From an uncultured Oscillospiraceae bacterium (GTDB taxonomy: Bacteria; Bacillota; Clostridia; Oscillospirales; Oscillospiraceae): a DNA stretch of 64,000 bases. The stretch is from the NCBI GenBank assembly GCA_905235655.1, contig CAJOMA010000003.1:4067-68066 (forward strand), given 5' to 3'. Position numbers and translations under genes: made by a program. This document shows, piece after piece, positions 4,645 through 46,931 of the stretch. Positions within the stretch are counted from its first letter, which is position 1, and the number at the start of each line of letters is the position of its first letter. The notes under the pieces were generated by a model. The model saw only the letters and a list, made by a program, of their open reading frames with translations. It had not been told where the DNA came from and made no database searches.

Positions 4645-4716
4645 TACCTTTTCTGTAGTCTCGCTCTGGAGGCGTGAGGGCGCGCCTCAGCTTCTACCTC
4701 TTCAATGCGGCGCGAC
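4645..4716 (-). promoter_or_regulatory. Probable L21 leader RNA
   Basis: 5' UTR of rplU containing gcgccgca ... cacgcct ... gcgagac blocks resembling the Firmicutes L21 leader; recognised by eye only. Confidence 0.5.
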
Positions 4717-4717
4717 T

Positions 4718-4746
4718 ATTCTATCATCGATTTTTCCAAATGTCAA
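4718..4746 (-). promoter_or_regulatory. sigma-A promoter of rplU operon
   Basis: TTGACA-N17-TAGAAT with extended TG. Confidence 0.8.
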
Positions 4747-4753
4747 ATAGTAT

Positions 4754-4782
4754 TTGACACTTTTTTTACTTTTTGCTATACT
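4754..4782 (+). promoter_or_regulatory. sigma-A promoter of apbE
   Basis: TTGACA-N17-TATACT. Confidence 0.75.
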
Positions 4783-4813
4783 TTTTTTGTAATTATTCAT
4801 AGAATCCGGTGAT

Positions 4814-6706: not shown

Positions 6707-8089
6707 CTATTTGTGAAATCTCGCGTCGATCGCCGCGGCGGCCTTTTTTCCCGCACCCATGGCAAGAATGACGGTCGCTGCGCCGGTCACGGCGTCGCCG
6801 CCGGCATAGACGCCCTCGCGGGTCGTCATATTGTCCTCGTTGACGATCAGACAGCCTTTCTTGTTGGTTTCCAGACCGGGCGTTGTGGAGCGGATCAGCG
6901 GATTGGGAGATGTGCCGAGCGCCATAATGACCGTATCGACCGGTAGCTCAAACTCGCTGCCGGGGATCGCGATGGGGCTGCGCCTGCCGGAGGCGTCCGG
7001 CTCGCCGAGCTCCATGCGGAGGCACTGCATCGCGCCGACTCTTCCCGCTCCGTCGTCGAGAATTTTCACGGGATTGGTGAGGGTGAGGAATTCGATCCCC
7101 TCTTCCTTGGCGTGGTGCTGCTCCTCCAGCCGCGCGGGCATTTCCTTTTCCGTGCGGCGATAGACGATATAAACGTGCTCCGCGCCGAGCCGCTTTGCCG
7201 AGCGGGCGGCGTCCATTGCTACGTTGCCGCCGCCGACCACGGCGACGGCGTTGGAGACGATGACCGGCGTATCGCTTTCCGGTTTGTATGCTTTCATCAG
7301 ATTGATTCTCGTCAGGAATTCATTTGCCGACAGGACGCCCTTCAGCGCTTCACCTTCGATGTTCATAAATATCGGCAGACCTGCGCCGGAGCCGATGAAA
7401 ATCGCCTGATAGCCCATTTCGAACAGCTCGTCGACAGACAGTACCTTGCCGATGATCATGTTCGTCATGACCTGAACGCCCATTGCCTCTAATTTTTTAA
7501 TCTCGTTTGCAACGAGCGCCTTCGGAAGACGGAATTCGGGAATGCCGTAGACCAGAACGCCGCCGGCGGTATGAAGCGCCTCAAAAATGCGGACCTCGTA
7601 GCCCTTCTTGGCAAGCTCGCTCGCGCAGGTCAGACCGGAAGGCCCGGAGCCGACCACTGCGACCTTCACGCCGTTTGATTCCGGCTTTTCCGGCATTTTG
7701 TTGACGTTCTCTCGGTACCAGTCCGCGACGAAGCGCTCCAAGCGTCCGATTGCGACCGGCTCGCCCTTCACGCCGCGGACGCACTTGCTTTCACACTGAC
7801 GTTCCTGCGGGCAGACTCTGCCGGACAGGGCGGGAAGCGCGTTCGTCGATGTAACGATCTCATACGCCGCGAGGAAATCTCCTTCTGCGACCTTGGCGAT
7901 GAATTCGGGAATGCGGATACTGACGGGGCAGGCGGTCACGCACTGCGGATTCTTGCAATGCAGGCAGCGCTGCGCTTCATTGACCGCCATTTCCGCCGTG
8001 TAGCCGAGGGTAACCTCCCTGAAATTGCGGTTGCGGACGTTCGGCTCCTGCTCCGGCATGGGGGTTTTTGTCATCTGCATATTCGGCAT
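6707..8089 (-). CDS. nfnB: NfnB-like large subunit of the electron-bifurcating transhydrogenase (GltD-like flavoprotein)
   Basis: RCLHC..C..ACP Fe-S motif, GRVCPQE, GSGPSG and GGGNVAMD; paired with an nfnA-like gene and no gltB in window. Confidence 0.8.
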   Translation of the reverse strand: MPNMQMTKTPMPEQEPNVRNRNFREVTLGYTAEMAVNEAQRCLHCKNPQCVTACPVSIRIPEFIAKVAEGDFLAAYEIVTSTNALPALSGRVCPQERQCESKCVRGVKGEPVAIGRLERFVADWYRENVNKMPEKPESNGVKVAVVGSGPSGLTCASELAKKGYEVRIFEALHTAGGVLVYGIPEFRLPKALVANEIKKLEAMGVQVMTNMIIGKVLSVDELFEMGYQAIFIGSGAGLPIFMNIEGEALKGVLSANEFLTRINLMKAYKPESDTPVIVSNAVAVVGGGNVAMDAARSAKRLGAEHVYIVYRRTEKEMPARLEEQHHAKEEGIEFLTLTNPVKILDDGAGRVGAMQCLRMELGEPDASGRRSPIAIPGSEFELPVDTVIMALGTSPNPLIRSTTPGLETNKKGCLIVNEDNMTTREGVYAGGDAVTGAATVILAMGAGKKAAAAIDARFHK

Positions 8090-9029: not shown

Positions 9030-9923
9030 TTATAACTTCGAATTTACGATAATCGGACTTGTTCCGATCATGTCCCAGGAAAAGACTTCGATCAGCTCCG
9101 CCGCGCTGACAGGCGCAGGGGTATCTGTCAGTTTCGCAAGAAAGGCAAGATAGCCGATCAGCTCCTGCGGGCGGTATCGCTCGCGCAGGTGCGCCATATC
9201 CAGACTCTTTTCGCGCTTGCTGAGACGTTTGCCGTCTGGCGCGACCAGCAGCGGCACGTGATAAAAACGCGGCACGGGCATATTTAGCGTCTGATACAGC
9301 CAAATCTGACGCGGGGTGGAGCGCAAAAGATCGCAGCCTCGCACGACCTCCGTCACGCCGCCGTCCGCGTCGTCGCAGACCACGGCGAGCTGATAGGCGT
9401 ACACCCCGTCGGAGCGGCGGACGATGAAGTCGCCGCATTCTGCAGCGAGCTTCTCGCGCTGTGCGCCGAATACGCCGTCCGTGAACACAATGTCCCTATA
9501 CGGCACACGGACGCGCCACGCGGGAGTTCTTTTCTTTGCGGCACGTTCCGCCTCGCTCAGATCACGGCAGGTTCCGGGATAGATCAGCGTTCCGTCTGAG
9601 GCGTGCGGCGCGGAGGCGTCGTGCAGCTCGCTGCGGCTGCAGTAACACGGATAGGTCGGCAAAAGCCCAAAAGCCTCGGCATAACGCGCGGTGCGCGCGC
9701 TTTGCAGCGGCGTTTCTTCATCATAGGTCAGTCCGAGCCACGCAAGATCGTCCTTGATCGCGTCGATGTACTCCCGCCTGCTGCGTTCGGGGTCAAGGTC
9801 CTCAATGCGAAGCAGCATTTTCCCGTTCTGCGAACGGACGGACAGCCAAGCAAGCAGCGCGGTAAAGAGATTTCCGAGGTGCATCCGTCCCGAAGGGCTC
9901 GGCGCAAAGCGTCCGACCGTCAT
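9030..9923 (-). CDS. gluQ: Glutamyl-queuosine tRNA(Asp) synthetase
   Basis: GRFAPSPSGRMHLGN, YQLAVVCDD and KRLSKR; 297 aa with no anticodon-binding domain. Confidence 0.88.
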   Translation of the reverse strand: MTVGRFAPSPSGRMHLGNLFTALLAWLSVRSQNGKMLLRIEDLDPERSRREYIDAIKDDLAWLGLTYDEETPLQSARTARYAEAFGLLPTYPCYCSRSELHDASAPHASDGTLIYPGTCRDLSEAERAAKKRTPAWRVRVPYRDIVFTDGVFGAQREKLAAECGDFIVRRSDGVYAYQLAVVCDDADGGVTEVVRGCDLLRSTPRQIWLYQTLNMPVPRFYHVPLLVAPDGKRLSKREKSLDMAHLRERYRPQELIGYLAFLAKLTDTPAPVSAAELIEVFSWDMIGTSPIIVNSKL

Positions 9924-10852
9924 GGAAGACTCACCAGATTTCTCAGCGGTCTGCCCCCCAGATAATTTTGAATATTTTCGCGGCAGATCGCCCAGATTAT
10001 TTCCTCAGTCTCGGGCAGATGACCGAAGCTCACGCCGGCGACATGCGGCGTCAGAATGACGTTCGGCATTGTCCACAGCGGATGCGCTGCAGGCAGCGGC
10101 TCCGGTTCCGTCACGTCCAGACCGACGCCGAAAAATTTTCCGCGATGCAGCAGCGCTGTTAACGAATTCAGGTCAATCAGATCGCCTCTTCCGACGTTGA
10201 TCAGCACGGCGTCGTCCCTGCAAAGAGACAGGCGTTCCTCATCAAAATAACGCGCAGTTTCCGCATTGGACGGCAGGGCGCATACGATAAAGTCCGCTTC
10301 AGGCAGAAAGGCCTCGGCGCAGAATAACGTGGTCAACGCCTCAAAATGCGCTCTCGTCTGACGCGCAGCGCGGCAGACGCCGATCGTATGCACGCCGAGC
10401 GCCTGTAAACGCTTTGCAATTTCCGTGCCGATATTGCCGCAGCCGAAAATCAGAGCGGTGCTTCCCGCAATACGTTTTTCGCAGCCGAGGTCGCGCCATT
10501 GCCCTGCCTGTTGATAAGCGGGCAGTCTGCGGCAAAGTGCGAACAGCATGGCAAGCGCGTGCTCGGCGATCGTCTCGCCGAACGCGCCAGACGCAGTTGT
10601 CAGCAGAACGTCCTTCGGAAACCCGCCGCGCAGATAACGGTCAGCGCCCGCCCATGTCATCTGCACCCATTTGAGTTTCTTTGCTGCAGAAAGCTCCTCC
10701 AGGCGCGGCTCGCCGATGACGACCTCCGCGTCCGTGATTTCCCGCAGCCGCAGATCGGCGTCTGCGTCACAAGGCAGCGCAATCGTTTCAAATTCGTCCG
10801 TCAGGTGCGGCACATTCTGCCCGCAGTCGGACAGGATCAGCAGTTTTCGCAT
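9920..10852 (-). CDS. D-2-hydroxyacid dehydrogenase family protein
   Basis: GCGNIG Rossmann motif; NVGRG, EPEP and TPHVAG catalytic motifs; ATG at 10852 after GGAGG. Confidence 0.88.
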   Translation of the reverse strand: MRKLLILSDCGQNVPHLTDEFETIALPCDADADLRLREITDAEVVIGEPRLEELSAAKKLKWVQMTWAGADRYLRGGFPKDVLLTTASGAFGETIAEHALAMLFALCRRLPAYQQAGQWRDLGCEKRIAGSTALIFGCGNIGTEIAKRLQALGVHTIGVCRAARQTRAHFEALTTLFCAEAFLPEADFIVCALPSNAETARYFDEERLSLCRDDAVLINVGRGDLIDLNSLTALLHRGKFFGVGLDVTEPEPLPAAHPLWTMPNVILTPHVAGVSFGHLPETEEIIWAICRENIQNYLGGRPLRNLVSLP

Positions 10853-12898: not shown

Positions 12899-15280
12899 AT
12901 GTATCAGGTAGTAAAACGAAATGACAAGGTCGTTGATTTTGACCTGTCGAAAATCTGTCTCGCCATTCAAAAGGCATTCGACGCCCTCGGCAAGGACTAC
13001 AACAAGGACACCATCGACTTCCTCGCGCTCAAGGTAACGGCTGACTTTGAGCCGAAGATCAAGGATGGCAAGGTCGCGGTCGAGGACGTGCAGGACAGCG
13101 TAGAGACTGTTCTGATCCGCGCGGGCTACGACGACGTGGCAAAGGCGTATATCCTTTACCGCCGTCAGAGAGAAAAGCTCCGCAACATGAAGTCCACCAT
13201 CCTCGACTACAAGGAGCTTGTGGACAGCTACGTCAAGGTGCAGGACTGGCGCGTCAAGGAGAATTCCACCGTCACCTACTCCGTCGGCGGTCTGATCCTC
13301 TCCAACTCCGGCGCGATCACCGCGAATTACTGGCTCAGCGAAATCTACGACGATGAGATCGCAAACGCGCACAAAAACTGCGATCTGCACATCCACGACA
13401 TGTCCATGCTGACCGGCTACTGCGCGGGCTGGTCGCTGCGCCAGCTCATTCAGGAGGGTCTCGGCGGCGTACCCGGCAAGATCACCTCCGCGCCTGCGAA
13501 GCACCTGGCTTCCCTGTGCAACCAGATGGTCAACTTCCTCGGCATCATGCAGAACGAATGGGCGGGCGCGCAGGCGTTCTCGTCCTTCGACACCTATCTT
13601 GCTCCCTTCGTCAAGGTGGACAACCTGAACTACGATCAGGTAAAGAAGTGCGTCGAGTCCTTCATCTACGGCGTCAATACCCCGTCCAGATGGGGTACGC
13701 AGGCGCCCTTCTCCAACATCACGCTTGACTGGACCGTGCCGGACGACATGGCGGAGCTTCCCGCGATCGTCGGCGGCAAGGAAATGCCATTCAAATACAA
13801 GGACTGCAAGGCGGAAATGGACATGGTCAACCGCGCCTTCATCGAGACGATGATCGAAGGCGACGCAAACGGCCGCGGCTTCCAGTACCCGATTCCCACC
13901 TATTCGATCACCCGCGACTTCGACTGGTCGGAGACCGAGAACAACAAGCTGCTGTTCGAGATGACCGCGAAGTACGGCACCCCCTATTTCTCCAACTACG
14001 TCAACAGCGACATGCAGCCGAGCGACGTGCGCTCCATGTGCTGCCGTCTGCGTCTTGACCTGCGCGAGCTGCGCAAGAAGTCCGGCGGCTTCTTCGGCAG
14101 CGGCGAGTCCACCGGCTCTGTCGGCGTCGTTACGATCAATATGCCGAAGATCGCGTATCTTTCCAAGACGCCGCAGGAATTCTACAAGCGTCTGGATCAC
14201 CTGATGGACATTGCCGCCCGTTCGCTGAAGATCAAGCGCACCGTCATCACCCGTCTGATGGAAGAAGGGCTTTATCCCTACACGAAGCGCTACCTCGGTA
14301 CCTTTGAAAACCACTTCTCCACCCTCGGTCTGATCGGCATGAACGAGGTCGGCCTGAACGCGGCTTGGCTGCGCAAGGACATGAGTCATAAAGAAACCCA
14401 GGAGTTCACGAAGGAAGTTCTGAACCACATGCGAGAGCGCCTGTCCGACTATCAGGAGCAGTACGGCGATCTATACAACCTCGAGGCGACTCCGGCGGAG
14501 TCCACCACCTACCGTCTTGCCAAGCACGACAAGAAAGACTTCCCCGACATCATCACCGCCAACGAGAACGGCACTCCGTACTACACCAACTCCTCTCACC
14601 TGCCCGTCGGCTACACCGAGGACATCTTCTCCGCGCTGGACGTGCAGGACGAGCTGCAGACGCTCTATACCTCCGGCACCGTCTTCCACGCCTTCCTTGG
14701 CGAGAAGCTGCCTGACTGGCGTTCTGCCGCCGCGCTGGTGCGCAAGATCGCAGAGAACTACCGTCTGCCGTATTACACCCTCTCTCCGACCTACTCCGTC
14801 TGCCGCGAGCACGGCTATATTACCGGCGAACAGTATACCTGCCCGATCTGCGGTCAGCCGACCGAGGTCTACAGCCGTATCACCGGATACTACCGCCCCG
14901 TACAAAACTTCAACGACGGCAAGGCGCAGGAATTCAAGGATCGCTTGGAATACAACGTCGCAAGCTCCATGAAGAACCGTTTCGGCGGCGCGGAAGCTTC
15001 CGCACAGACTGAAAAAGAAGTTTCTGTCGCTCCCTGCGCGGATGGCAGACTGGTGCTCTTCACCACGAGCACCTGCCCGAAGTGCGTGATGGCGAAGAAA
15101 TTCCTCGCAGACGCCGGTATCTCCTATGAAACCGTCGTCGTGAACGAAACGCCTGATGAGGCGAGAAAGTACGGCGTTCGTCAGGCGCCTACCCTCCTGA
15201 TCCTCGACGGAGACAAAGAAATCGACCGCGTGGAGAATCCGTCCAACATCCGCGCCTTTGCGGAAGCGCACATGGCGTAA
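12899..15280 (+). CDS. nrdD: Class III ribonucleotide reductase with ATP cone and fused C-terminal CxxC redoxin domain
   Basis: ATP cone, RSMCCRL finger loop, Zn motifs CREH/CPIC, YSRITGYYRP glycyl-radical motif, then TCPKC..QAPT domain. Confidence 0.93.
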   Translation: MYQVVKRNDKVVDFDLSKICLAIQKAFDALGKDYNKDTIDFLALKVTADFEPKIKDGKVAVEDVQDSVETVLIRAGYDDVAKAYILYRRQREKLRNMKSTILDYKELVDSYVKVQDWRVKENSTVTYSVGGLILSNSGAITANYWLSEIYDDEIANAHKNCDLHIHDMSMLTGYCAGWSLRQLIQEGLGGVPGKITSAPAKHLASLCNQMVNFLGIMQNEWAGAQAFSSFDTYLAPFVKVDNLNYDQVKKCVESFIYGVNTPSRWGTQAPFSNITLDWTVPDDMAELPAIVGGKEMPFKYKDCKAEMDMVNRAFIETMIEGDANGRGFQYPIPTYSITRDFDWSETENNKLLFEMTAKYGTPYFSNYVNSDMQPSDVRSMCCRLRLDLRELRKKSGGFFGSGESTGSVGVVTINMPKIAYLSKTPQEFYKRLDHLMDIAARSLKIKRTVITRLMEEGLYPYTKRYLGTFENHFSTLGLIGMNEVGLNAAWLRKDMSHKETQEFTKEVLNHMRERLSDYQEQYGDLYNLEATPAESTTYRLAKHDKKDFPDIITANENGTPYYTNSSHLPVGYTEDIFSALDVQDELQTLYTSGTVFHAFLGEKLPDWRSAAALVRKIAENYRLPYYTLSPTYSVCREHGYITGEQYTCPICGQPTEVYSRITGYYRPVQNFNDGKAQEFKDRLEYNVASSMKNRFGGAEASAQTEKEVSVAPCADGRLVLFTTSTCPKCVMAKKFLADAGISYETVVVNETPDEARKYGVRQAPTLLILDGDKEIDRVENPSNIRAFAEAHMA

Positions 15281-16851: not shown

Positions 16852-17280
16852 TCAGTGCAGTCCGATCTCTTCCGGGTCGATGGTCCGAACGCCGTTCTTT
16901 TCCAATAGCGCGATCAAACGATCTTCGTCGGATACGCGGAAGACCATATAGGCATCTTCCCTGCCACGGTTAAAGAGCGAATACATATATTCGATGTCGA
17001 TCTTTTCCTGTGCCATCAGTTCCAGCACGTTCGCAAGCGAGCCCGGCACATCCGGAACGGCGACAATCACGACGTCGTTGACCTTCACGATGCAATTCTG
17101 ACCGGTGAGCGCTTCCTTTGCAGTATTGACGTCGCTGACGAGCATACGGAGAATGCCGAAATCCGTCGTATCGGCGATGGAAAGCGCGCGGATGTCCACG
17201 CCCGCCTGATACAAGGCGCGGGTAATGCCGGCAATTTTGCCGGCTTTATTCTGCAAAAAAACGGAAAGCTGCGATACCAT
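16852..17280 (-). CDS. Tandem ACT-domain protein
   Basis: QLSVFLQNKAG, IRALSIADTTDFGILR and DVPGSLA; this family usually follows paaK. Confidence 0.88.
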   Translation of the reverse strand: MVSQLSVFLQNKAGKIAGITRALYQAGVDIRALSIADTTDFGILRMLVSDVNTAKEALTGQNCIVKVNDVVIVAVPDVPGSLANVLELMAQEKIDIEYMYSLFNRGREDAYMVFRVSDEDRLIALLEKNGVRTIDPEEIGLH

Positions 17281-17292
17281 AAGTCTACCTCC

Positions 17293-18600
17293 TTAATCCA
17301 AGAGCTTGCGCTTGTCGATGACGCGGACGGCCTTTCCCTCGGAGCGCGGGATGGTGTTCGGCTCCACCAGAGAGACTTTTGCGCCGATACCGAGCAGCGT
17401 CCGGAGCGCGGCCTCGAGCTCCTTTGCGCGCTGCGCCAGACCGCGCACCGTATCGGAGAATATCTCGTTGCTGATCTCAACCTGTACCTCGATGCTGTCG
17501 GTATGGTTTGTCCGATCGACAACGATCTGATAGTTCGCGGTATACCCCTTGTCGAGCAGGACGGTCTCGATCTGCGACGGGAAGACGTTCACACCGCGAA
17601 TGATGAGCATGTCGTCCGTTCTGCCGCGCGGCTTCGTCATCTTGACGAGCGTGCGTCCGCAGGCGCATTTTTCCCGCGTGATAACGCCGATATCGCGGGT
17701 GCGGTAGCGCAGGATCGGAAAGGCTTCCTTCGTAATGCAGGAGAAGACCAGCTCGCCCTGCGTGCCCTCCGGCAGCACCTCGCCGGTGTCGGGGTCGATG
17801 ACCTCGACGATGAAGTGATCCTCGTTGATGTGCATACCGGTCTGTTCGCTGCATTCAAACGCGACGCCTGGACCCATTACCTCGGTCAAGCCGTAGATGT
17901 CAAAGGCTTTAAGCCCGAGCTTGTCCTCGATCTGACGGCGCATTTCGTTCGTCCAAGGCTCCGCGCCGAAGATGCCCGCCTTCAAGGAGATGTCGTCCTT
18001 CGTCAGCCCGCTTGCCTCGAGCACCTCCGCAAGATGCAGCGCGTAAGACGGCGTAGAGCAGAGCACCGTGCTGCCGAAGTCGTGCATAATGGTGATCTGA
18101 CGCTGTGTATTGCCGGTGGACGCCGGGATCGCAGTCGCGCCGAGGCGCATCGCGCCTCCATCCGCGCCGAGACCGCCGGTGAAGAGGCCGTAACCGTAGG
18201 AGACCTGCACGACGTCTTCGTTCGTGCAGCCCGCAGCGGTCAGCGCTCTGGCGCAGCAGTCCGCCCAAATATCCAAATCATGCTGCGTGTAGCCGACGAC
18301 GATCTGCTTGCCAGTCGTGCCGGAGGAGGCGTGGATGCGCACAACGTCCTTCATCGGAACGGCGAACAGTCCGTACGGATAGGTGTCGCGCAGATCCTTT
18401 TTGTAGCTGAACGGCAGCTTGTGCAGGTCGTCGATCGAACGGATATCATCCGGCGTGACGCCCGCCTCTTTCATCTTGTCTCGGTAGAACGGAACGCATT
18501 CGTAGACGCGCCTGACCGTAGCGGCCAGCCGTTCATTTTGCAGAGAAACAATCGTTTCTCTTGAAGCTGTTTCGATTTCCTTCTGATAATACTTTTCCAT
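17293..18600 (-). CDS. paaK: Phenylacetate-CoA ligase
   Basis: [26 protein letters not shown] and [13 protein letters not shown] motifs. Confidence 0.92.
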
Positions 18601-19172
18601 TATGTTCCTGCCCCCAAAGCAAACGCTTTCTGATTCATTTCGAGGAATTTGGGCGGGACGCTCTGCACGATCGCCTCATTCCATTCCTCCGGTGAAAAGT
18701 CAAAGTATTTTGATAATCTGCCCATCAGGACAAGGTTGACCGCCTTGGAGGAGCCCGCCTTCTCCGCAAGAGAAAGCGCGTCAAAGGCGTCGACCCTGAT
18801 CCCCGCAGCCTTCATCTTTTCGACAAGCTCTGCGGGGTATTCCGCCGCGCCGGTGATCACCGGCATCGGATTGATCTGCTGCGTATTCGTGATGATCGTG
18901 CCGTCGGGTTTTAGGTATTGCGTCCAGCGCGCCGCCTCCAGCAGTTCAAAGGAGACGATAAAGTCCGCTTCGCCGAGGTCGATGATCGGAGAGCAGACGC
19001 GGTCGCCGTAGCGAACGTAAGTCACGACGCTGCCGCCGCGCTGACTCATGCCGTGTACCTCGGAAACCTTGACGTCATAGCCGCGCGACAGCAGGAGCTT
19101 TCCGAGCAGCTTGCTCGCAAGCAGACTTCCCTGCCCGCCGACGCCGACGATCATGATATTCTTTGTTTTCAT
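18600..19172 (-). CDS. iorB: Indolepyruvate/arylpyruvate:ferredoxin oxidoreductase beta subunit
   Basis: GVGGQG and [13 protein letters not shown] motifs. Confidence 0.92.
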
Positions 19173-19174
19173 GC

Positions 19175-20908
19175 TCACCCCTCCTGCAATGCGTCGAATT
19201 TGCAGAGCTGACGGCATACGCCGCAGCCGGTGCAGAGGGTGGAATCAACCTTTGCCTTGCCATCCGTCATGCTGATGGCGGGACAGCCGATCCTCATGCA
19301 CGCCTTGCAGCTCTTGCATTTTTCACTGTCGACATGAAGCGGAGCTTTGTGCTTCACATACTTTAACAGCGCGCAGGGTCTTCTGGAGATGATGACCGAC
19401 GCCTCCGGCGCGGCAAGCTCCTCCTTGATGACGCGCTCGCATTGCGCAAGGTCATAAGGATCGACGACGCTGACGCGGCGAATGCCGAGCGCATGGCAGA
19501 GCGCTTCCAGATCGACCTTTGCCGCAGGATCGCCCTTGAGGTTAAAGCCGGTGGTCGGATTCTGCTGATGGCCGGTCATGCCGGTGATGGAGTTGTCCAG
19601 AATGATCACAGTGCTGTTTGAATCGTTGTAGGCGATGTTGACCAGACCCGTCATGCCGGAATGCATAAAGGTCGAGTCGCCGATGACCGCGACGGTATTG
19701 CCGTCGGTCTTCCCTTCGTTCGCCTTGTTAAAGCCGTGAATTCCGGAAACGGACGCGCCCATGCAGATTACGCTGTCGACCGCGTTCAGCGGCGCGACTG
19801 CGCCGAGGGTATAGCAGCCGATATCGCCGATCACGTTGAGCTTCAGCTTTTTGAGCGTGTAGAACAGACCGCGGTGCGGACAGCCGGCGCACATGACAGG
19901 CGGACGCGCCGGAATGACCTCGTTCAGCGCGCTGCCCTGCGATACGGGAAGTCCGAGTCCTGCGGCGATTTTGTTCTGTGACAGCTCGTCGATGTTGGAG
20001 AACAGATTCTTTCCTTCGACCGTTAATCCGATCGTTTTGCAGTAATCCTCCACAAAGCCGTCCAGCTCCTCCACGACCACGACGCGGTCGACAGACGCGG
20101 CAAAATCGCGTAGCAGCTTATCCGGCAGCGGCCAGATCATGCCGAGCTTTAAGACGCTGACGTCTTCGCCGCAGACCTCGCGCACATACTGATAGCAGGT
20201 GCTGGAGGTGATGATACCGAGCTTGCGGTCCGTTCCCTTTTCCCAGCGGTTGCAGGGGGCGGTTTCCGCGTAGTCCTGCAGCGACTTCAGCCGCGCTTCC
20301 ACGATCGGATGGCGCTTTTTGGCGTAGCCTGGCATCATGATGTACTTCATCGGGTTCTTTTCGTAGGCCTTCTGCGGAAGCTCCGCGCGCTCGGACGGCT
20401 CGACGATGCTCTGCGAATGCGCCACTCTGGTGCACATTTTCAGCAGGACGGGCGTATCGAACCGCTCGGAAATCTCATAAGCGAGCTTGGCGAACGCGAT
20501 TCCCTCTCCGGCGTCCGAAGGCTCGAGCATCGGCACCTTCGCAGCCTTGGCGTAGTTTCTGGAATCCTGCTCGTTCTGCGAGCTGTGCATGCCGGCGTCG
20601 TCCGCGACGGCGATGATCATGCCCGCGTTCACGCCCGTATAGGAGATCGTAAAGAGTGGATCGGCGGCGACGTTCATGCCGACGTGCTTCATGCCGCAGA
20701 AGCTGCGCTTGCCTGCCATCGACGCGCCGAACGCCGCTTCCACAGCGACCTTCTCATTCGGCGCCCACTCGGCGTAGATTTCGGGATATTTTGCGGCGCA
20801 TTCCGTGATCTCCGTACTCGGCGTGCCGGGATAGCTGGATACAAAGGAGCAGCCGGCCTCATATAAGCCTCTGGCAACGGCCTCGTTGCCGAGCATCAAT
20901 TGTTTCAT
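19175..20908 (-). CDS. iorA: Indolepyruvate/arylpyruvate:ferredoxin oxidoreductase alpha subunit
   Basis: YPGTPSTE, NEKVA, CAGCPHR, GDIGCY, TPP motif GDST..N and C-terminal 2x[4Fe-4S] Cys motifs. Confidence 0.93.
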   Translation of the reverse strand: MKQLMLGNEAVARGLYEAGCSFVSSYPGTPSTEITECAAKYPEIYAEWAPNEKVAVEAAFGASMAGKRSFCGMKHVGMNVAADPLFTISYTGVNAGMIIAVADDAGMHSSQNEQDSRNYAKAAKVPMLEPSDAGEGIAFAKLAYEISERFDTPVLLKMCTRVAHSQSIVEPSERAELPQKAYEKNPMKYIMMPGYAKKRHPIVEARLKSLQDYAETAPCNRWEKGTDRKLGIITSSTCYQYVREVCGEDVSVLKLGMIWPLPDKLLRDFAASVDRVVVVEELDGFVEDYCKTIGLTVEGKNLFSNIDELSQNKIAAGLGLPVSQGSALNEVIPARPPVMCAGCPHRGLFYTLKKLKLNVIGDIGCYTLGAVAPLNAVDSVICMGASVSGIHGFNKANEGKTDGNTVAVIGDSTFMHSGMTGLVNIAYNDSNSTVIILDNSITGMTGHQQNPTTGFNLKGDPAAKVDLEALCHALGIRRVSVVDPYDLAQCERVIKEELAAPEASVIISRRPCALLKYVKHKAPLHVDSEKCKSCKACMRIGCPAISMTDGKAKVDSTLCTGCGVCRQLCKFDALQEG

Positions 20909-20925
20909 ATTCCGCCTCCACTCTA

Positions 20926-22563
20926 TCAGTTTGTGATCTGCGCTTCGACCAGACGGCCGTGGCAGTATTTCTCGCGCAGGACGGGCTTTTCGATCTTGCC
21001 GGTCGGGTTGCGCGGAACCTTCTCGAAGATGATTTTGCGCGGCCGCTTGTAGCGCGGCATACCGAGGCAGAATTCGTTGATCTCCTCCTCGGTGCAGGTC
21101 ACGCCGTCCTTCAGTTCGATGATCGCGGCGGCGATTTCGCCGAGACGCGGGTCGGGCAGACCGATGACCGCGACATCCTTGATCTTTTCGTTCGCCCGCA
21201 GGAAGTCCTCGATCTGCACGGGATAGAGGTTTTCGCCGCCGGTGATGATAACGTCCTTTTTACGGTCGACGAGATAGATAAAGCCGTCCTCGTCGTACTT
21301 CGCCATATCGCCGGTATAGAGCCAGCCGTCCTTGAGGACTTCGTTCGTCGCTTCTTTGTTTTTGTAGTAGCAGAGCATGACGCCCGGGCCATGGACGATC
21401 AGCTCGCCGACCTCGCCGCCGGAAACGGGCTTCCCCTGCTCGTCGACGATCTTCGCCTCCCAGCCGAAGCCGGGCTTTCCGATCGCGCCGACTTTATGGA
21501 TATTCTCCACGCCGAGATGGACACAGCCGGGTCCGATCGATTCGGAAAGACCGTAATTCGTGTCGTACTGATGGTGCGGGAAGATCGCCTTCCAGCGCTT
21601 GATCAGACTCGGCGGAACGGGCTGCGCGCCGATATGCATCAAGCGCCACTGATCGAGCATGTAGTGCGAAAGATCGACTCTGCCGGAATCAATCGCGTCC
21701 AGAATATCCTGCGCCCAAGGCACAAGCAGCCAGACGATTGTGCACTTTTCTTCCGTTACGGCGCGCAGAATCCATTCGGGCTTCACGCCGCGCAGCAGAA
21801 CGGCGCGGCTGGCGGAGAGCAGACTGCCGAACCAGTGCATTTTCGCGCCGGTATGGTATAGCGGCGGAATGCAGAGGAAAACGTCGTCACGGGTTTGTCC
21901 GTGGTGATTCTGCTCCGTGCGGCAGGAGCTGACGAGGGCGCGGTGATTGTGCAGTATCGCCTTCGGAAAGCCCGTCGTGCCGGAGGAGAAATAGATCGCC
22001 GCATAATCGTCCTCGTCGAGCAGTACGGGAGGCGCAGACTGGGAGCAGTAGTTGACAAGCTCCAGATAGGACTCCGCAAAGGGCGGCACGTCCTTGCCGA
22101 CGTAGAACATAAACTTTACGCGATCCATACGCTTTACAATCGGCTTGATCCGGTCGGTAAACTCCGGTCCGAAGATCAGCACCTCCACGTCGGCAAGATC
22201 AACGCAGTATTCGATTTCGTCGCTCGAATAGCGGAAGTTCATCGGCACGGCAAGCGCGCCGGTTTTCAGAATGCCGAAATAGATCGGCAGCCATTCCAGA
22301 CAGTTCATCAGCAGAATGCCGACCTTCTGTCCTTTCTTAATCCCACGGCTCAGCAGCAGGTTGGCAAAGCGGTTTGCGCGATGATCAAATTGCTGCCAGG
22401 TCATCTCTCTGCGGTAAGGCTGATCCGTGCTCGTATTCTCAATCAGTCGGAATTCGCTCCACGTCTTCGCACGGTCGCGTTCCTCCGAGGGATTGATCTC
22501 CACCAGCGCAACCTCCGCTCCGTAAAATCGCGCGTTTCGTTCCAGAAAATCGGTAATTACCAT
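20926..22563 (-). CDS. AMP-forming acyl-CoA ligase, first gene of the T-box operon
   Basis: FSSGTTGFPK, YGLSE, TGD, DRKKD and PTGK motifs; ATG at 22563 after AAAGGAG. Confidence 0.88.
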   Translation of the reverse strand: MVITDFLERNARFYGAEVALVEINPSEERDRAKTWSEFRLIENTSTDQPYRREMTWQQFDHRANRFANLLLSRGIKKGQKVGILLMNCLEWLPIYFGILKTGALAVPMNFRYSSDEIEYCVDLADVEVLIFGPEFTDRIKPIVKRMDRVKFMFYVGKDVPPFAESYLELVNYCSQSAPPVLLDEDDYAAIYFSSGTTGFPKAILHNHRALVSSCRTEQNHHGQTRDDVFLCIPPLYHTGAKMHWFGSLLSASRAVLLRGVKPEWILRAVTEEKCTIVWLLVPWAQDILDAIDSGRVDLSHYMLDQWRLMHIGAQPVPPSLIKRWKAIFPHHQYDTNYGLSESIGPGCVHLGVENIHKVGAIGKPGFGWEAKIVDEQGKPVSGGEVGELIVHGPGVMLCYYKNKEATNEVLKDGWLYTGDMAKYDEDGFIYLVDRKKDVIITGGENLYPVQIEDFLRANEKIKDVAVIGLPDPRLGEIAAAIIELKDGVTCTEEEINEFCLGMPRYKRPRKIIFEKVPRNPTGKIEKPVLREKYCHGRLVEAQITN

Positions 22564-22584
22564 TTCTTGACTCCTTTGTAATGA

Positions 22585-22818
22585 AAATCGCCCTCTGCTT
22601 TCGCAGAGGACGAGAATTTCCCGTGGTACCACCTCTATTGGGTCTCAGCGGATCGTGTGATCCCGCGCTGTAACGGGCGCAGCCGTTTCCGCCTACTGGA
22701 AAGCCGTTCGGCAGAACCGCTCGGAAAGGAATTCCGCCTGTGCGCCGCCGCTGTCTTGCACCGACCGGCAGTTCTCTGTAGGCGCATTCACAGGTGTACT
22801 TGGTTTCGTCATCGCGTT
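22585..22818 (-). ncRNA. T-box riboswitch with Phe (UUC) specifier
   Basis: Minus strand shows GCGAUGA GA-motif, AGUA, AGAGA, GGUGCAAGA, GAA-UUC specifier (22731-22729), GAGCG, T-box AAUAGAGGUGGUACCACG and terminator hairpin 22589-22612 with U-tract. Confidence 0.9.
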
Positions 22819-22831
22819 TTCTATTAGGAAC

Positions 22832-22860
22832 ACTTTAGCACTTTTAATCGTTAAAGTCAA
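22832..22860 (-). promoter_or_regulatory. sigma-A promoter of the T-box leader
   Basis: TTGACT-N17-TAAAGT; the -35 overlaps the paaI-like stop codon. Confidence 0.6.
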
Positions 22861-23380: not shown

Positions 23381-23430
23381 ATATTGGAATTTCAGGAAGT
23401 CTGTGAACAGACTTGAAAGGAAGCGTATTT

Positions 23431-24579
23431 ATGACTACAATTGACATTTATTCCGGCTTTCTCGGCGCGGGGAAAACGACCCTGATCAAGAAGATGATCA
23501 AGGAAGCCTATTGCGGCGAAAAGATCGTCCTGATCGAGAACGAATTCGGCGAGATCGGCATCGACGGCGGTTTCATGCAGGAGGCGGGAATCCAGATTAA
23601 CGAGATGAATTCCGGCTGTATATGCTGCTCCCTCGTCGGCGATTTCAGCAAGGCGCTGCAGCAGGTCATCAGCGAGTATGCGCCCGACCGCATTTTGATC
23701 GAGCCGTCCGGCGTCGGCAAACTCAGCGACGTGATCGCCGCGGTGCAGCGCTCCGTCGGCGCTGAGGTGCAGCTCGGCTGCTTCGTCACCGTCGCAGATG
23801 CGACGAAATGCAGGGTGTATCTGAAGAATTTCGGCGAATTCTACAGCAATCAGATCGAAACGGCGTCGGCGATCATTCTCAGCCGCACCGCGACCATTGC
23901 CGAGGACAAGCTGGATACCGCCGTTTCCCTGCTCCGCGAGCACAACAAAGAGGCCGTCATTATCACGACTCCGTGGGAGGAGCTGACTGGCGCGCAGATT
24001 CTGGACGCCATGCGCCACCAAAACAGTCTGACGGAAGAACTGGCGGAGTTGATCGAACACGAGCATCACCATCACGACGATGAGGAATGCGACGATCCCG
24101 ATTGCTCCTGCCACCACCATCATCATGACCACGAGGACGGCGAGGAGCATCACCACCACCATCACCACGATCATGAGGACGGTGAGGAGCATCACCATCA
24201 TCACCACGATCATGAGGACGGCGAGGAGCATCACCACCACCATCACCACGATCATGAGGACGGCGAGGAGCATCACCATCATCACCACCACGGTCACGAC
24301 GCAGACGAGGTCTTCCAGAGCTGGGGCGTGGAAACACACAAGAAGTTCAGCAGAGACGACCTCAACGAGATTCTTTCCGCGCTCGACAGCGACGAAGTTT
24401 ACGGTATCGTGCTTCGCGCGAAGGGCATCGTCCAGTCGCCGGACGGCGGATGGCTGCATTTTGACCATGTTCCCGGCGAGATCGACATTCGCAGCGGCTG
24501 CGCCGCCGTGACCGGCAGACTCTGCGTGATCGGCTCAAAGCTGAAGGAAGCGGAAATCGTCAACCTTTTTGGAGTGTAA
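23431..24579 (+). CDS. COG0523/CobW-family metallochaperone GTPase with His-rich insert
   Basis: GFLGAGKTT, NEFGEIGID, GCICCS (CxCC) and EPSG motifs; CobW-type C-terminal domain. Confidence 0.9.
   Translation: MTTIDIYSGFLGAGKTTLIKKMIKEAYCGEKIVLIENEFGEIGIDGGFMQEAGIQINEMNSGCICCSLVGDFSKALQQVISEYAPDRILIEPSGVGKLSDVIAAVQRSVGAEVQLGCFVTVADATKCRVYLKNFGEFYSNQIETASAIILSRTATIAEDKLDTAVSLLREHNKEAVIITTPWEELTGAQILDAMRHQNSLTEELAELIEHEHHHHDDEECDDPDCSCHHHHHDHEDGEEHHHHHHHDHEDGEEHHHHHHDHEDGEEHHHHHHHDHEDGEEHHHHHHHGHDADEVFQSWGVETHKKFSRDDLNEILSALDSDEVYGIVLRAKGIVQSPDGGWLHFDHVPGEIDIRSGCAAVTGRLCVIGSKLKEAEIVNLFGV
24127..24291 (+). repeat. In-frame tandem repeat, 4 units of 39-42 bp encoding DHEDGEE(H)6-7
   Basis: Units start at 24127, 24169, 24208 and 24250. 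Confidence 0.9.
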
Positions 24580-24582
24580 ACT

Positions 24583-25518
24583 ATGCCTGTTCCCGTTTAT
24601 GCATTCACCGGATTCTTAGACGCCGGCAAGACAAAATTCATACAGGATACGCTGTGCGACACGCGCTTTAACGCCGGCGAGCGCACCCTGCTTCTGATCT
24701 GCGAGGAGGGCGAAGAGGAATACGATACCTCCGTCTATCCGTACCATCACGTCTACCCGGAGGTCGTCGACCAGGAGAGCGTGACGACGCAGGAGCTGGA
24801 AGCCCTGTGCAAAAGGCACCGCTGTGAGCGCGTGGTCGTCGAGCTGAACGGCATGCTGCAGGTCGGTTTATTCTATCAGAAAATGCCGCAGGACTGGCAG
24901 ATCGCGCAGGAGGTCATGTTTGTCGACGCAACGACAATCCTGCAATACAACGCCAATATGCGCTCTCTCGTCGTGGACAAGCTGACCGGCTGCGAGATGG
25001 TCGTATTCAACCGCGTGCCGGCAGGTATGGACATCATGCCGCTGCACAAGCTGGCGCGTGCCCTCAACCGGCGCGTCGGCATTCTCTATGAGTACGCCGA
25101 CGGCAGGATGGATTATGACGATATTGAGGATCCCCTGCCCTTTGATATCAACGCGCCTGTCATCGAGATCGGCGACGAGGATTTCGCCCTCTGGTACCGC
25201 GATATCAGCGAAGAGCCGAAAAAATACAAGGATAAGACCGTGCGCTTCAAGGGGCAGGTCGCCCGTTTGAAAAAGGAAAAGGACGGCTTCTTCGCGCCCG
25301 GCCGCTTTGTGATGACCTGCTGCGTCGAGGACATCCAGTTTATGGGGATTCCCTGTAAATATGAAAAGAGCGACGAGCTGCGCGCCCGCGACTGGGTTAT
25401 GGTGACGGCGAAGATCAACGTCCGGTTCCACTCCATCTACCGCGGGATCGGCCCCGTGCTGGAGGCGCTGGAAGTCTCCCCTGCCGAACCCGCGCAAAAC
25501 GAGGTCGCTACCTTTTGA
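24583..25518 (+). CDS. CobW-like GTPase N-domain fused to a DUF1980/TIGR03943-like C-domain
   Basis: GFLDAGKT at N-terminus with no CxCC; C-terminal GRFVMTCCVED motif. Confidence 0.65.
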   Translation: MPVPVYAFTGFLDAGKTKFIQDTLCDTRFNAGERTLLLICEEGEEEYDTSVYPYHHVYPEVVDQESVTTQELEALCKRHRCERVVVELNGMLQVGLFYQKMPQDWQIAQEVMFVDATTILQYNANMRSLVVDKLTGCEMVVFNRVPAGMDIMPLHKLARALNRRVGILYEYADGRMDYDDIEDPLPFDINAPVIEIGDEDFALWYRDISEEPKKYKDKTVRFKGQVARLKKEKDGFFAPGRFVMTCCVEDIQFMGIPCKYEKSDELRARDWVMVTAKINVRFHSIYRGIGPVLEALEVSPAEPAQNEVATF

Positions 25519-44813: not shown

Positions 44814-46931
44814 TTATTCTGCGGGAGCCTCTTCAACTGGCGCAGTTTCCTCAACGGGAGCTTCTTCCACGGAAGCAGCTTCCTCGGCGGGAGCCTCTTC
44901 CACAGGAGCGGCTTCCTCAACGGGAGCCTCATCCACAGGTGCAGCTTCCTCAACAGAAGCTTCGTCGACAGGCTCTTCCTCCTCTGCAGGAGCTTCCTCC
45001 TCTGCAGGAACCGGCACAAGCAGCGCGCGGATGGAGAGGGAGATACGCTTGCGCTCGGAGTCGATCTCGATGATCTTCGCTTCGACTTCCTGACCTTCGC
45101 TCAAGGCGTCGGAAACCTTCTCGACGCGATGATCCGAGACCTGCGAAATATGGATCAGACCGTCAACCCCGGGCAGAATCTCTGCGAACGCGCCGAAATC
45201 GACAATCTTCACGATCTTGACCTGCGCAACGTCGCCGACGGAATACTTCTCGCAGAACTGGTTCCACGGATTCATCTCCGGCGTCTTGTAGCCGAGAGAA
45301 ATCTTCTTCTTCTCGGGATCGGCCTTTATGACGAAGACCTCGATGGTATCGCCGACCTTTACGACCTCGTCGGGAGTCTTAATGCGTCCCCAAGACAGCT
45401 CGGAGATATGGACCATGCCGTCCACGCCGCCGATGTCGACAAAGGCGCCGTAGCTGGTGAGGGACTTAACGGTGCCGGTGTACTTCTTGCCGACCTCGAT
45501 CTCGCTCCAAACCTTCTCAATCGCAGCTCTGCGAGCCTCGCCGCTCAGGGCGCGGATAGAGCCGACGACTCTGCGGCGGGCGCGGTTGAATTCGGTGATC
45601 TTCATTTTCAGGGTCTTGCCCTTGAGCTCGCTCAGGTCGCCGCCCTTGGCGACGCCGGTCTGAGAAGCCGGAATGAACACGCGGACGCCCTTGACGTTGG
45701 CGACCAGACCGCCCTTGTTCTCTTCGGTAATGACGCCTTCAACGGGAGTCTTTTCCTCGCAGGCCTTTTCGACCTCGTCCCACACCTTCATGCCCTCGAG
45801 CTTTTTGCGGCTGAGCTGAACGGTGCCCTCCTGATCGTTGACGCGAACGACGAACACTTCGATCTCGTCGCCGACCTTCAGGACTTCCTCGGGTTTTACG
45901 TTGGGGTCTGCGCTGACTTCGTCATACGGGATGTAGCCGGCATGCTTCGTGCCCAGATCGACCTGGACTTCGGTGGAACCGATCGCGGTAACGGTGCCAA
46001 AAACCTTATCTCCTGTATTTAAAGTCTTGATGGAGTTTTCGAGCAAAGCCTCAAAGCTCTCCTCTGCGACTGCATCAACATTAGAAATTTCGCTCATAGT
46101 CTTATTGACCTCCTTTATAATCCACGCAGGCGTCGACGCGCCTGCAGTGATGCCGATGGTAGCGCAATTCTGATATACGGCAGGATCGAGCTCGTCCGCG
46201 CAGTCGATCAGGTCGACCCTCGCGCAGTGCTCTGCGCAGATATGCGCCAGACGACCGGTATTGGAGCTGTTGCGGTCTCCGACGACGATCATGGCGTCGC
46301 AATTCGCCGCCAGTTCCGCGGCTTCTGCCTGCCTGTTTTCAGTTGCTCTGCATATTGTATCAAAGATTTCTCGATTTGTACACACTTTTTTTACGATTTT
46401 CTTGCAAGATTCCCATAAAAATTGCGTACTTGTCGTCTGAGAAACCATTGTGACGGGCAAATCCTTATTATTTTCCGAAGAATTCAGCCAGTTTTCGAGC
46501 TCCTCTGCGCTGGAAAAGACCAAAGGATGCCTGCACCAGCCGGCGATCGCTATGATCTCGGGATGGGTCGGCGTGCCGATGATGATCGGCTGTCTGCCAT
46601 CCTCCTCCGCCTTGGCGACAAGAGAATGGATGCGCTTGACGGACGGACAGGTCGCGTCGATGATCTCGACGTTTTTTGCCTCCAACGCTTCATACGTCGC
46701 GCGCGGAATGCCGTGAGAACGGATGATGACCGTCGAGCCGTCCGGAATATCGTCAAGGGAGGAAATCTCCTTGACGCCCAGCTCCTCAAAATGGCGTACC
46801 AGATGCCGGTTGTGTGCGATCGGGCCGAAGGTCACGGTGGACTTCCCTTCCACGATCGCCTGTTCGACCAGACCGACCGCGCGGCTGACGCCGTAGCAGA
46901 AGCCGGCGGTTTTCGCTGCTACAATCTTCAC
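44814..46931 (-). CDS. ispH: Bifunctional IspH (HMBPP reductase) / 30S ribosomal protein S1 fusion
   Basis: AGFCYGV, IAHN, DATCP, TIC.AT..RQ and SSNT IspH motifs, then four S1 repeats and an acidic tail. Confidence 0.92.
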   Translation of the reverse strand: MKIVAAKTAGFCYGVSRAVGLVEQAIVEGKSTVTFGPIAHNRHLVRHFEELGVKEISSLDDIPDGSTVIIRSHGIPRATYEALEAKNVEIIDATCPSVKRIHSLVAKAEEDGRQPIIIGTPTHPEIIAIAGWCRHPLVFSSAEELENWLNSSENNKDLPVTMVSQTTSTQFLWESCKKIVKKVCTNREIFDTICRATENRQAEAAELAANCDAMIVVGDRNSSNTGRLAHICAEHCARVDLIDCADELDPAVYQNCATIGITAGASTPAWIIKEVNKTMSEISNVDAVAEESFEALLENSIKTLNTGDKVFGTVTAIGSTEVQVDLGTKHAGYIPYDEVSADPNVKPEEVLKVGDEIEVFVVRVNDQEGTVQLSRKKLEGMKVWDEVEKACEEKTPVEGVITEENKGGLVANVKGVRVFIPASQTGVAKGGDLSELKGKTLKMKITEFNRARRRVVGSIRALSGEARRAAIEKVWSEIEVGKKYTGTVKSLTSYGAFVDIGGVDGMVHISELSWGRIKTPDEVVKVGDTIEVFVIKADPEKKKISLGYKTPEMNPWNQFCEKYSVGDVAQVKIVKIVDFGAFAEILPGVDGLIHISQVSDHRVEKVSDALSEGQEVEAKIIEIDSERKRISLSIRALLVPVPAEEEAPAEEEEPVDEASVEEAAPVDEAPVEEAAPVEEAPAEEAASVEEAPVEETAPVEEAPAE

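Follow-up and report, generated by a model that had tools for sequence, protein, structure and literature searches.

What is a T-box riboswitch with a phenylalanine (Phe) codon doing ahead of an operon that encodes an indolepyruvate:ferredoxin oxidoreductase (IOR) and two CoA ligases? The arrangement is found on the minus strand of a 64-kb stretch of DNA (hereafter the window) from an uncultured Oscillospiraceae bacterium (contig CAJOMA010000003.1 of assembly GCA_905235655.1). T-boxes are turned on by their uncharged cognate tRNA, and a first-pass annotation of this DNA had proposed that Phe starvation induces the operon to make Phe from phenylacetate, by way of phenylacetyl-CoA and phenylpyruvate. 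We analyzed the leader RNA, the genes that it would control, and the corresponding loci of relatives. We put the probability that the leader is a working, Phe-tuned T-box of the attenuation type that drives salvage of phenylacetate to Phe at roughly 0.6.

The leader and its specifier codon

As a T-box, the leader is unremarkable and well formed. The first-pass annotation had called a complete T-box leader, and the covariance model for the family (Rfam RF00230) bears this out: it matched positions 22821-22603 of the minus strand over its full length (model positions 1-219) with 117.3 bits, against a gathering cut-off of 93 (E 2.7e-25), and this was the sole Rfam match across the window. The parts follow one another in the order Stem I, Stem II, the IIA/B region, Stem III, the T-box sequence, and the competing antiterminator and terminator helices (Table 1). 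Stem I has a GA/K-turn (GCGAUGA ... CGAGC), an AGUA/GAA specifier loop, an AGAGA bulge, and a GGUGCAA distal loop, motifs that were invariant or nearly so among 36 aligned leaders, and RNAalifold of the 36 Stem I sequences found compensatory changes in 20 of the 20 predicted pairs. Minimum free energy folding, whether applied to the complete leader or just to Stem I, did not reproduce the T-box fold. This is expected because the structure is stabilized by tRNA, and we used covariation instead.

The leader is built so that termination would be the default. The antiterminator (-9.7 kcal/mol, with a 7-nt UGGUACC bulge) is weak relative to the terminator, with which it has its 3' strand in common, and therefore only bound uncharged tRNA would tip the balance to read-through. 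The promoter-like sequence (TTGACTTTAGC...AAAGTG(C/A)TAAAGT) recurs at the loci of relatives (designated by L numbers) L001, L082, L083, L085, and L002, including relatives in which the sensor has been deleted. There are no tRNA genes within the window. The tRNA-Phe(GAA) gene of one relative, L032, ends in ...CUGGGC-A-CCA, and its discriminator A (A73) is complementary to the UGGU bulge. The fit to tRNA-Phe that the first-pass annotation had noted is thus present, but the bulge suits tRNA-Tyr, which also has discriminator A, equally well and is no evidence for Phe over tyrosine (Tyr).

The specifier codon is UUC, in the frame denoted '+0'. It had been read as the triplet after the conserved GAA of Stem I, and covariation backs that reading. 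The helix that closes the specifier loop starts one base past the codon and covaries among the leaders (GAAA/UUUC, GGAA/UUCC, GGAG/CUCC, GAGA/UCUC), with one of its pairs being A-U in 23 and G-C in 13 of the 36. Because the covarying helix begins at this point, the frame is fixed. The '+0' frame is also the one preferred by TBDB, in which 99% of Phe specifiers are UUC and 99% of Tyr specifiers are UAC (PMC7778990). In leaders that have an additional base after GAA (GAAUUAC, GAAAUAC), the codon stays against the helix, not against GAA. The -1 and +1 frames (AUU, isoleucine, and UCC, serine) were ruled out by the position of the codon next to the helix in these extra-base leaders and because +0 is the only frame that is aromatic throughout.

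The UUC codon is stable in the window lineage. Public metagenome contigs from five runs of three studies carried the window leader with UUC unchanged, and a sixth run, from a further study, carried a more divergent strain (24 differences per 600 nt) that had kept UUC. The metagenomes carrying this lineage were from sheep, goat, and bovine gut. Because the codon was unchanged across the contigs of six runs, we conclude that UUC is not an assembly error and that the U is fixed in the lineage.

Tyr and Phe settings among related leaders

Most of the homologous leaders have a Tyr codon. We sampled 80 loci from a species-level genome scan anchored on the first gene of the operon, a FadD-like ligase, together with five contigs encoding close homologs. 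Leaders were found with an nhmmer profile built from 26 leaders, which we used in place of a regular expression for the T-box and specifier that had missed several leaders and frames. A T-box homolog stood ahead of the operon in 36 of the 80 species loci, and Rfam found no T-box in seven of the profile-negative loci that we cross-checked. The Rfam gathering cut-off alone is unsafe as a test of absence because it missed the leader of L001 (9644-9857; 90 bits), a Tyr T-box that is intact except for a 223-nt insertion inside the Stem II region. The specifier was UAC (Tyr) in 31 and UUC (Phe) in 9 of 40 homologous leaders, and no other codon was found.

The two codons differ in where they occur. 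All 31 UAC leaders stand before the ligase gene or before a symporter-ligase pair. UUC precedes the ligase in seven leaders (the window, L011, L013, L014, L025, L030, and L061) and precedes iorA in the other two (L016 and L060), both of which also have a Tyr T-box before the ligase. At these two loci (T-boxes at 9694-9953 and 11718-11974 in L016, and at 7329-7575 and 11072-11335 in L060) the UAC leader comes first and heads the ligase, along with a symporter in L060, and the UUC leader comes second and heads IorA-IorB-PaaK-ACT-aminotransferase. Transcripts from the first promoter of either locus would need to pass both switches.

The Phe setting of the window is apparently recent. The nearest relative, L082, has a ligase that is 93% identical, the same five-gene layout, and the same chromosomal neighborhood, and its specifier is UAC. 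At the specifier the L082 leader reads GGAAUACCUUUCC and the window leader reads GGAAUUCCUUUCC, the codons differing only in the middle base (22730). Because the nearest relative has UAC, the window setting is best explained as a recent change of one base. One such change would retarget the switch because both tRNAs have discriminator A and the invariant UGGU serves either. Consistent with this, changing UAC to UUC is reported to be enough to shift induction of Bacillus subtilis tyrS from Tyr limitation to Phe limitation (Grundy and Henkin, as cited in PMC7430163). On the ligase tree, UUC leaders appear in at least five separate places among UAC leaders. Only UUC, of nine possible one-base changes, has been fixed, and repeatedly so, a pattern that speaks for selection on the sensing of aromatic amino acids and against drift.

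Based on these comparisons, we believe that the leader family is mainly Tyr-specific and that a more fitting label for the operon is arylacetate salvage for aromatic amino acids (Tyr/Phe), with a sensor recently retuned to Phe in the window lineage. The Phe-specific control proposed at first pass agrees with UUC and with all of the sequence features of the window leader, but it does not extend to the family at large or to the nearest relative. There is also a hint of where the leader came from. L017 (17802-19484) has an ordinary Tyr T-box and tyrS directly after the ACT gene of a salvage operon that has no T-box of its own. This tyrS leader matched the leader profile (E 5e-26), which hints that the T-box of the operon may derive from a tyrS leader.

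The sensor has been deleted in several members of the same genus. L083 and L084, at the syntenic spot, retain the promoter, a 3' remnant of the T-box, and the terminator. In L085, L086, and L002, the first bases of Stem I are fused directly to the terminator, and in a strain from metagenome run X7 the entire leader (window 22563-22824) is replaced by 20 nt. The sensor-deleted leaders of these congeners (L083 7909-7976, L085 ~7875-7990, L002 ~9890-9990) have a terminator of -20 to -29 kcal/mol and have lost Stems I-III.

The main rival to a working Phe switch is that UUC is an accident in a decaying Tyr leader. The window would then have a Tyr T-box that picked up a neutral or damaging mutation while being lost, the true job of the operon would be to make Tyr from 4-hydroxyphenylacetate, and Phe control would be accidental or non-functional. 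The UAC of sister lineage L082, the prevalence of UAC in the family (31 of 40), and the sensor deletions in L083-L086, L002, and the X7 strain all fit this explanation, as do the loss of symporter and aminotransferase genes from the window operon (see below) and the two-T-box loci, which put the ligase under Tyr control. It does not readily account for a remaining leader that is wholly intact (117 bits), for the fixation of UUC in six runs, which come from three or more studies and include a strain with changes elsewhere in its leader, or for the independent origin of UUC, and of UUC alone among the nine possible changes, at least five times. In addition, the tyrS leader becomes a working Phe sensor through the equivalent mutation, and L016 and L060 have dedicated Phe T-boxes before IorAB-PaaK-ACT-aminotransferase. 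We consider an accidental UUC unlikely.

The operon and the direction of its pathway

The leader is followed by five genes that are as tightly packed as the first-pass annotation had indicated, with gaps of 17, 2, -1, and 12 nt on the same strand and no internal terminator. The FadD-like ligase, encoded by the first gene, scored under the cut-off of every NCBIfam model, and its closest entries in the PDB (FadD13, FadD5, and feruloyl-CoA synthetase) are generic relatives only. Relatives of this gene are present in at least 594 species genomes, where it mostly heads IorAB operons, and we propose that it encodes an arylacetate-CoA ligase, possibly for 4-hydroxyphenylacetate. IorA and IorB both exceed the NCBIfam equivalog cut-offs and have thiamine pyrophosphate (TPP) and iron-sulfur domains, with a 2x[4Fe-4S] domain at the C-terminus of IorA. 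The true start of IorB is the ATG at 19172, 2 nt past the IorA stop, and its ortholog in L082 is also 190 aa.

The fourth gene product belongs to the PaaK family. Its full-length matches in the PDB include PaaK1 (2Y27, Burkholderia; E 4e-134), PaaK2, and a Bacteroides PaaK (4R1L; E 4e-124), making phenylacetate its putative substrate. The fifth gene, for a protein with a pair of ACT domains, directly follows PaaK in nearly all loci examined, and we presume that its product is an amino-acid-binding regulatory partner of PaaK or IOR. A hairpin after the ACT gene, which was not called by a simple terminator scan, is the likely end of the operon. A gene for a PaaI-like thioesterase, also syntenic in relatives, precedes the T-box promoter and is not part of the unit under T-box control. 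There are no aro, phe, or tyr biosynthesis genes within the window.

Table 1. Leader elements, operon genes, and flanking features, in window positions (aa, amino acids; RBS, ribosome-binding site).
Feature	Position	Strand	Evidence and remarks
Promoter-like site	22860-22832	-	TTGACT-17 nt-TAAAGT, extended-10 TG; 9/12 consensus matches
T-box leader, transcription-attenuation type	22821-22588	-	Rfam RF00230, Stem I covariation, folding energies
Specifier UUC (Phe)	22731-22729	-	loop ...AGUA.../...GGCG-GAA-UUC-C-UUUC-CGAGC; unchanged in runs X1-X6
Antiterminator bulge UGGU	22631-22628	-	within T-box sequence AAUAGAGGUGGUACCACGG; pairs with ACCA-3' of uncharged tRNA, discriminator A
Leader intrinsic terminator	22613-22588	-	11-bp stem, GAAA loop, then UUUUCAUU; -20.4 kcal/mol; U-run
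Gene 1, FadD-like class I adenylate-forming acyl-CoA ligase, 545 aa	22563-20926	-	Pfam AMP-binding + AMP-binding_C; RBS AAAGGAG
Gene 2, IorA, indolepyruvate (arylpyruvate):ferredoxin oxidoreductase alpha	20908-19175	-	TIGR03336 704 bits (cut-off 651); POR_N, TPP_enzyme_C, Fer4
Gene 3, IorB beta subunit, 190 aa	19172-18600	-	NF005325 272 bits (cut-off 230); Pfam POR
Gene 4, PaaK-family phenylacetate-CoA ligase, 435 aa	18600-17293	-	start overlaps IorB stop by 1 nt
Gene 5, ACT-domain-pair protein, 142 aa	17280-16852	-	Pfam ACT_8 E 1e-21; PDB 2F06 E 5e-26
Hairpin, likely operon end	16841-16811	.	AAGCCGGUG...CACCGGCUU then AUUAUUA; between convergent ACT and SASP genes
PaaI-like hotdog thioesterase, 142 aa	22857-23285	-	Pfam 4HBT; TIGR02286 PaaI 74 bits, under cut-off

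The operons of relatives contain modules that suggest a complete assimilatory pathway. The ligase and IorAB form the conserved core, to which an SSF-family Na+/solute symporter (on either side of the ligase), PaaK-ACT, and, at the 3' end, a class I aminotransferase are often added. The closest solved structure to the 388-aa aminotransferase is Mycobacterium tuberculosis Rv0858c (N-succinyldiaminopimelate aminotransferase), followed by YbdL, kynurenine/glutamine-K aminotransferases, and the Pyrococcus aromatic aminotransferase. The full set of modules would provide for uptake and activation of the acid, its reductive carboxylation, and a final transamination. In the window lineage, the operon has lost the symporter and the aminotransferase.

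The ligase can also be found apart from IOR. Units consisting of a Tyr T-box and the ligase (sometimes with the symporter), followed by unrelated housekeeping genes, are present at L039 (7581-9505), L044 (9689-11629), L055 (9693-11635), and L081 (8108-11629), indicating that the FadD-like ligase can form a module under Tyr control away from any IOR. The stand-alone units and the two-T-box loci together hint that this ligase might handle 4-hydroxyphenylacetate and PaaK phenylacetate. We also considered a strict pairing of the ligase with Tyr and PaaK with Phe. This pairing is true of L016, L060, and the stand-alone units and fails in five lineages, where a Phe T-box precedes the ligase.

Several features suggest that the pathway would run in the anabolic direction. 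The two ligases of the operon are of the AMP-forming type, which pushes an acid toward its thioester. These ligases, the starvation-induced T-box, and the symporter and aminotransferase encoded in the operons of relatives are the reasons for favoring synthesis. PaaK is almost always accompanied by a trailing ACT-pair gene, an arrangement that we liken to feedback-controlled biosynthetic enzymes. There is precedent for the chemistry: IOR-dependent synthesis of aromatic amino acids from aryl acids has been described in Methanococcus maripaludis (Porat et al., as cited in PMC4162585), and the formation of Phe from phenylacetate by rumen cultures and bacteria is an observation of the 1960s (as cited in PMC7356843).

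A catabolic or fermentative operon would run the same reaction in reverse. Phenylacetyl-CoA would be formed from phenylpyruvate by IorAB through oxidative decarboxylation, as in peptide-fermenting anaerobes, with the ligases serving some other purpose or recycling CoA. The general annotation of IOR and PaaK as catabolic, the reversibility of 2-oxoacid:ferredoxin oxidoreductases, and the PaaI-like thioesterase gene immediately upstream are compatible with this direction. But it would be self-defeating to break down an amino acid in response to its uncharged tRNA, neither an ADP-forming acyl-CoA synthetase nor a phosphotransacylase/kinase is encoded in the cluster to conserve ATP, and AMP-forming ligases together with a catabolic IOR would make a futile cycle. 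For these reasons catabolism is improbable. The thioesterase is, moreover, outside the T-box unit, and the co-operonic importer and ACT regulator suit assimilation better.

It is comparably improbable that the operon serves to assimilate some other acid, such as indoleacetate (to tryptophan), phenylpropionate, or another aryl or branched acid, with Tyr or Phe control serving as a signal of general aromatic shortage. IOR enzymes take several arylpyruvates, the FadD-like ligase has no assigned substrate, and many other clusters have two PaaK paralogs around IorAB, suggesting several substrates. However, UGG (tryptophan) and further specifiers are absent from the 40 leaders, the PaaK protein is very close to proven phenylacetate-CoA ligases, and IOR chemistry needs arylacetyl-CoA, not arylpropionyl-CoA.

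We propose the following mechanism for arylacetate salvage under tRNA control. Transcription would begin at the promoter-like site upstream of the leader. During Phe limitation, the anticodon of uncharged tRNA-Phe(GAA) would pair with UUC in the specifier loop of Stem I, and its free ACCA end would pair with the UGGU bulge and stabilize the antiterminator, allowing RNA polymerase to continue into the five genes. The FadD-like ligase and PaaK would make phenylacetyl-CoA or 4-hydroxyphenylacetyl-CoA from imported arylacetate, and IorAB would convert the thioester, CO2, and reduced ferredoxin to the arylpyruvate by reductive carboxylation. An aminotransferase, which is in the operon in relatives and presumably elsewhere in the genome of the window organism, would then give Phe or Tyr. 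The ACT-pair protein is probably a sensor of the amino acid product that keeps PaaK or IOR in check. The corresponding response in most relatives would be to Tyr starvation, with 4-hydroxyphenylacetate converted to Tyr; the operon family would be ancestrally Tyr-controlled (UAC), and a single A-to-U change would have retargeted the window lineage to Phe.

Several observations weigh against this proposal. In the leader, the base 3' of the codon is C, whereas the usual T-box base is a purine. Across the leader family this position has C (in about half of the family), A, or, in one strain, U; the purine is a frequent, non-defining feature of T-boxes, and membership in RF00230 stands. The UAC of the nearest relative and the deleted sensors in congeners raise the concern that the leader may be under relaxed selection in the genus. 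Among the enzymes, comparison with the PDB gave no characterized close homolog of the FadD-like ligase, PaaK scored 553 bits on TIGR02155, under the equivalog cut-off of 646, and IOR enzymes are reversible and commonly annotated as catabolic. The window operon has neither a transporter nor an aminotransferase, both of which are known from the operons of relatives, and therefore the first and last steps of the pathway would have to be encoded elsewhere. The route from phenylacetate to Phe proposed at first pass is thus strengthened by what relatives encode (symporter, aminotransferase, AMP-forming ligases, PaaK-ACT) but weakened by the absence of the symporter and aminotransferase modules from the window operon itself. 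A search for RNA-seq runs containing the locus found none. Lastly, in a second sample, of 80 IorA-anchored metagenome loci, a T-box of this leader family was present at one, and that one had UAC. Together with the species loci, about half of which have no T-box, this indicates that the operon can function without a T-box.

The IorA-anchored sample also sets the range over which T-box control occurs. The idea that such control is a general rule for IOR operons was ruled out by the single homologous leader among the 80 loci, and T-box control appears to be a trait of ligase-led operons in part of the Oscillospirales. IorAB-PaaK-ACT clusters are common in this sample, often with a second PaaK paralog in the place of the FadD-like ligase. 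Loci with a PaaK-IorA-IorB-PaaK-ACT layout include L098, L100, L114, L126, L145, L147, L154, L155, and L160, along with others, and none has the aromatic T-box. The PaaK paralogs of this layout are ~50% identical to each other's family, and there are sometimes two ACT genes.

A broader proposal, to which we give somewhat less than even odds, is that the T-box marks a widespread and undescribed bacterial operon that makes Tyr or Phe from the gut acids 4-hydroxyphenylacetate and phenylacetate. Its core would be a new FadD-like arylacetate-CoA ligase plus IorAB, with the symporter, PaaK-ACT, and aminotransferase being optional. The toggling between UAC and UUC, or the loss of the leader, would follow which aromatic amino acid a lineage cannot make, and the common IorAB-PaaK-ACT clusters of the gut would consume these acids. 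If so, the specifier would predict auxotrophy, and the gut clusters would consume the precursors of host phenylacetylglutamine and p-cresol, not produce them.

The window and the loci of relatives have other features apart from the operon. Divergent from the thioesterase gene are two adjacent CobW-family GTPase genes (23413-25518, plus strand), the second with a C-terminal DUF1980 domain; the pair is syntenic in all close relatives, and the products are probably metallochaperones. Elsewhere in the window are genes for a 297-aa protein (9030-9923, minus strand) that has only the catalytic domain of a class Ic (Glu/Gln) tRNA synthetase and resembles a tRNA-modifying paralog of the GluQ-RS/YadB type, for the anaerobic ribonucleotide reductase NrdD with a C-terminal glutaredoxin domain (12899-15280, plus strand), and for IspH (LytB) fused to several S1 RNA-binding domains (44814-46931, minus strand). 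L118 (3480-3700) and L119 (8490-8710) have a separate T-box, with an apparent GCC (alanine) specifier, after IorB and a terminator. It is unrelated to the aromatic switch, and in L118 it precedes an open reading frame of 883 aa, probably alaS. L004, a relative with no T-box, has an azaaromatic (yjdF) riboswitch (4713-4813; 85 bits) ~5 kb upstream of the ligase.

Relation to known systems

The target of the T-box, a probable arylacetate salvage operon with an uncharacterized ligase, is new here, as is a natural series of Tyr/Phe toggling and decay. A full-text literature search found no paper that pairs a T-box with indolepyruvate, IOR, or phenylacetate-CoA ligase, with a mention in the survey of Vitreschak (2008) being possible, and TBDB may list such leaders without comment. 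IOR and PaaK genes of the gut and rumen are routinely read as producers of phenylacetate-type acids that feed phenylacetylglutamine and p-cresol. A tRNA sensor that responds to starvation would be direct regulatory evidence for consumption of the acid, at least in these Oscillospiraceae. The locus thus offers candidate genes and a proposed control mechanism for the conversion of phenylacetate to Phe seen in the rumen in the 1960s, and it indicates a candidate new family of arylacetate-CoA ligases. It also offers a natural series for the evolution of T-box specificity, comprising a Tyr setting, a Phe setting, tandem switches, and deleted sensors.

The closest metabolic precedent is the aryl-acid pathway of M. 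maripaludis and the rumen. Both that pathway and the one proposed here go from arylacetate through arylacetyl-CoA and arylpyruvate to the amino acid, use the IorAB family, and share the ruminant-gut habitat. Unlike the archaeal pathway, the operon is bacterial (Oscillospiraceae) and has an extra FadD-like ligase, PaaK-ACT, an optional symporter and aminotransferase, and tRNA-sensing control, its activity being predicted from comparison of genes. To our knowledge, the extra ligase, the PaaK-ACT, symporter, and aminotransferase modules, and tRNA-sensing control are all undescribed for the archaeal system. The operon also resembles the aerobic paa catabolon of Proteobacteria in having a PaaK-family ligase and an adjacent PaaI-like hotdog thioesterase. 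It differs from the catabolon in having no PaaABCDE oxygenase or ring-opening genes, in coupling PaaK to IorAB and an ACT protein, in belonging to an anaerobic sporeformer, and in its predicted control by amino acid starvation and not by phenylacetyl-CoA/PaaX.

As a regulatory system, the locus belongs with the Phe and Tyr T-box regulons of Firmicutes (pheS/pheT, tyrS, aromatic biosynthesis, and transporters; TBDB, PMC7778990), with which it shares the RNA family, the use of UUC and UAC, and the logic of restoring supply. Its target sets it apart from the canonical regulons, being salvage from a fermentation acid and not a synthetase, the shikimate/prephenate pathway, or an amino acid importer. 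The B. subtilis tyrS leader is the nearest in mechanism: it is also an attenuation T-box with a specifier loop in Stem I, a UGGN bulge that reads the discriminator, and competition between terminator and antiterminator. The window leader differs from it in controlling a metabolic operon and not an aminoacyl-tRNA synthetase, in having C after the codon, and in that its response to tRNA is a prediction. In the engineered variant of tyrS, the choice between Tyr and Phe is set by the middle base of the codon, and the window together with L082 appears to be a natural copy of that experiment.

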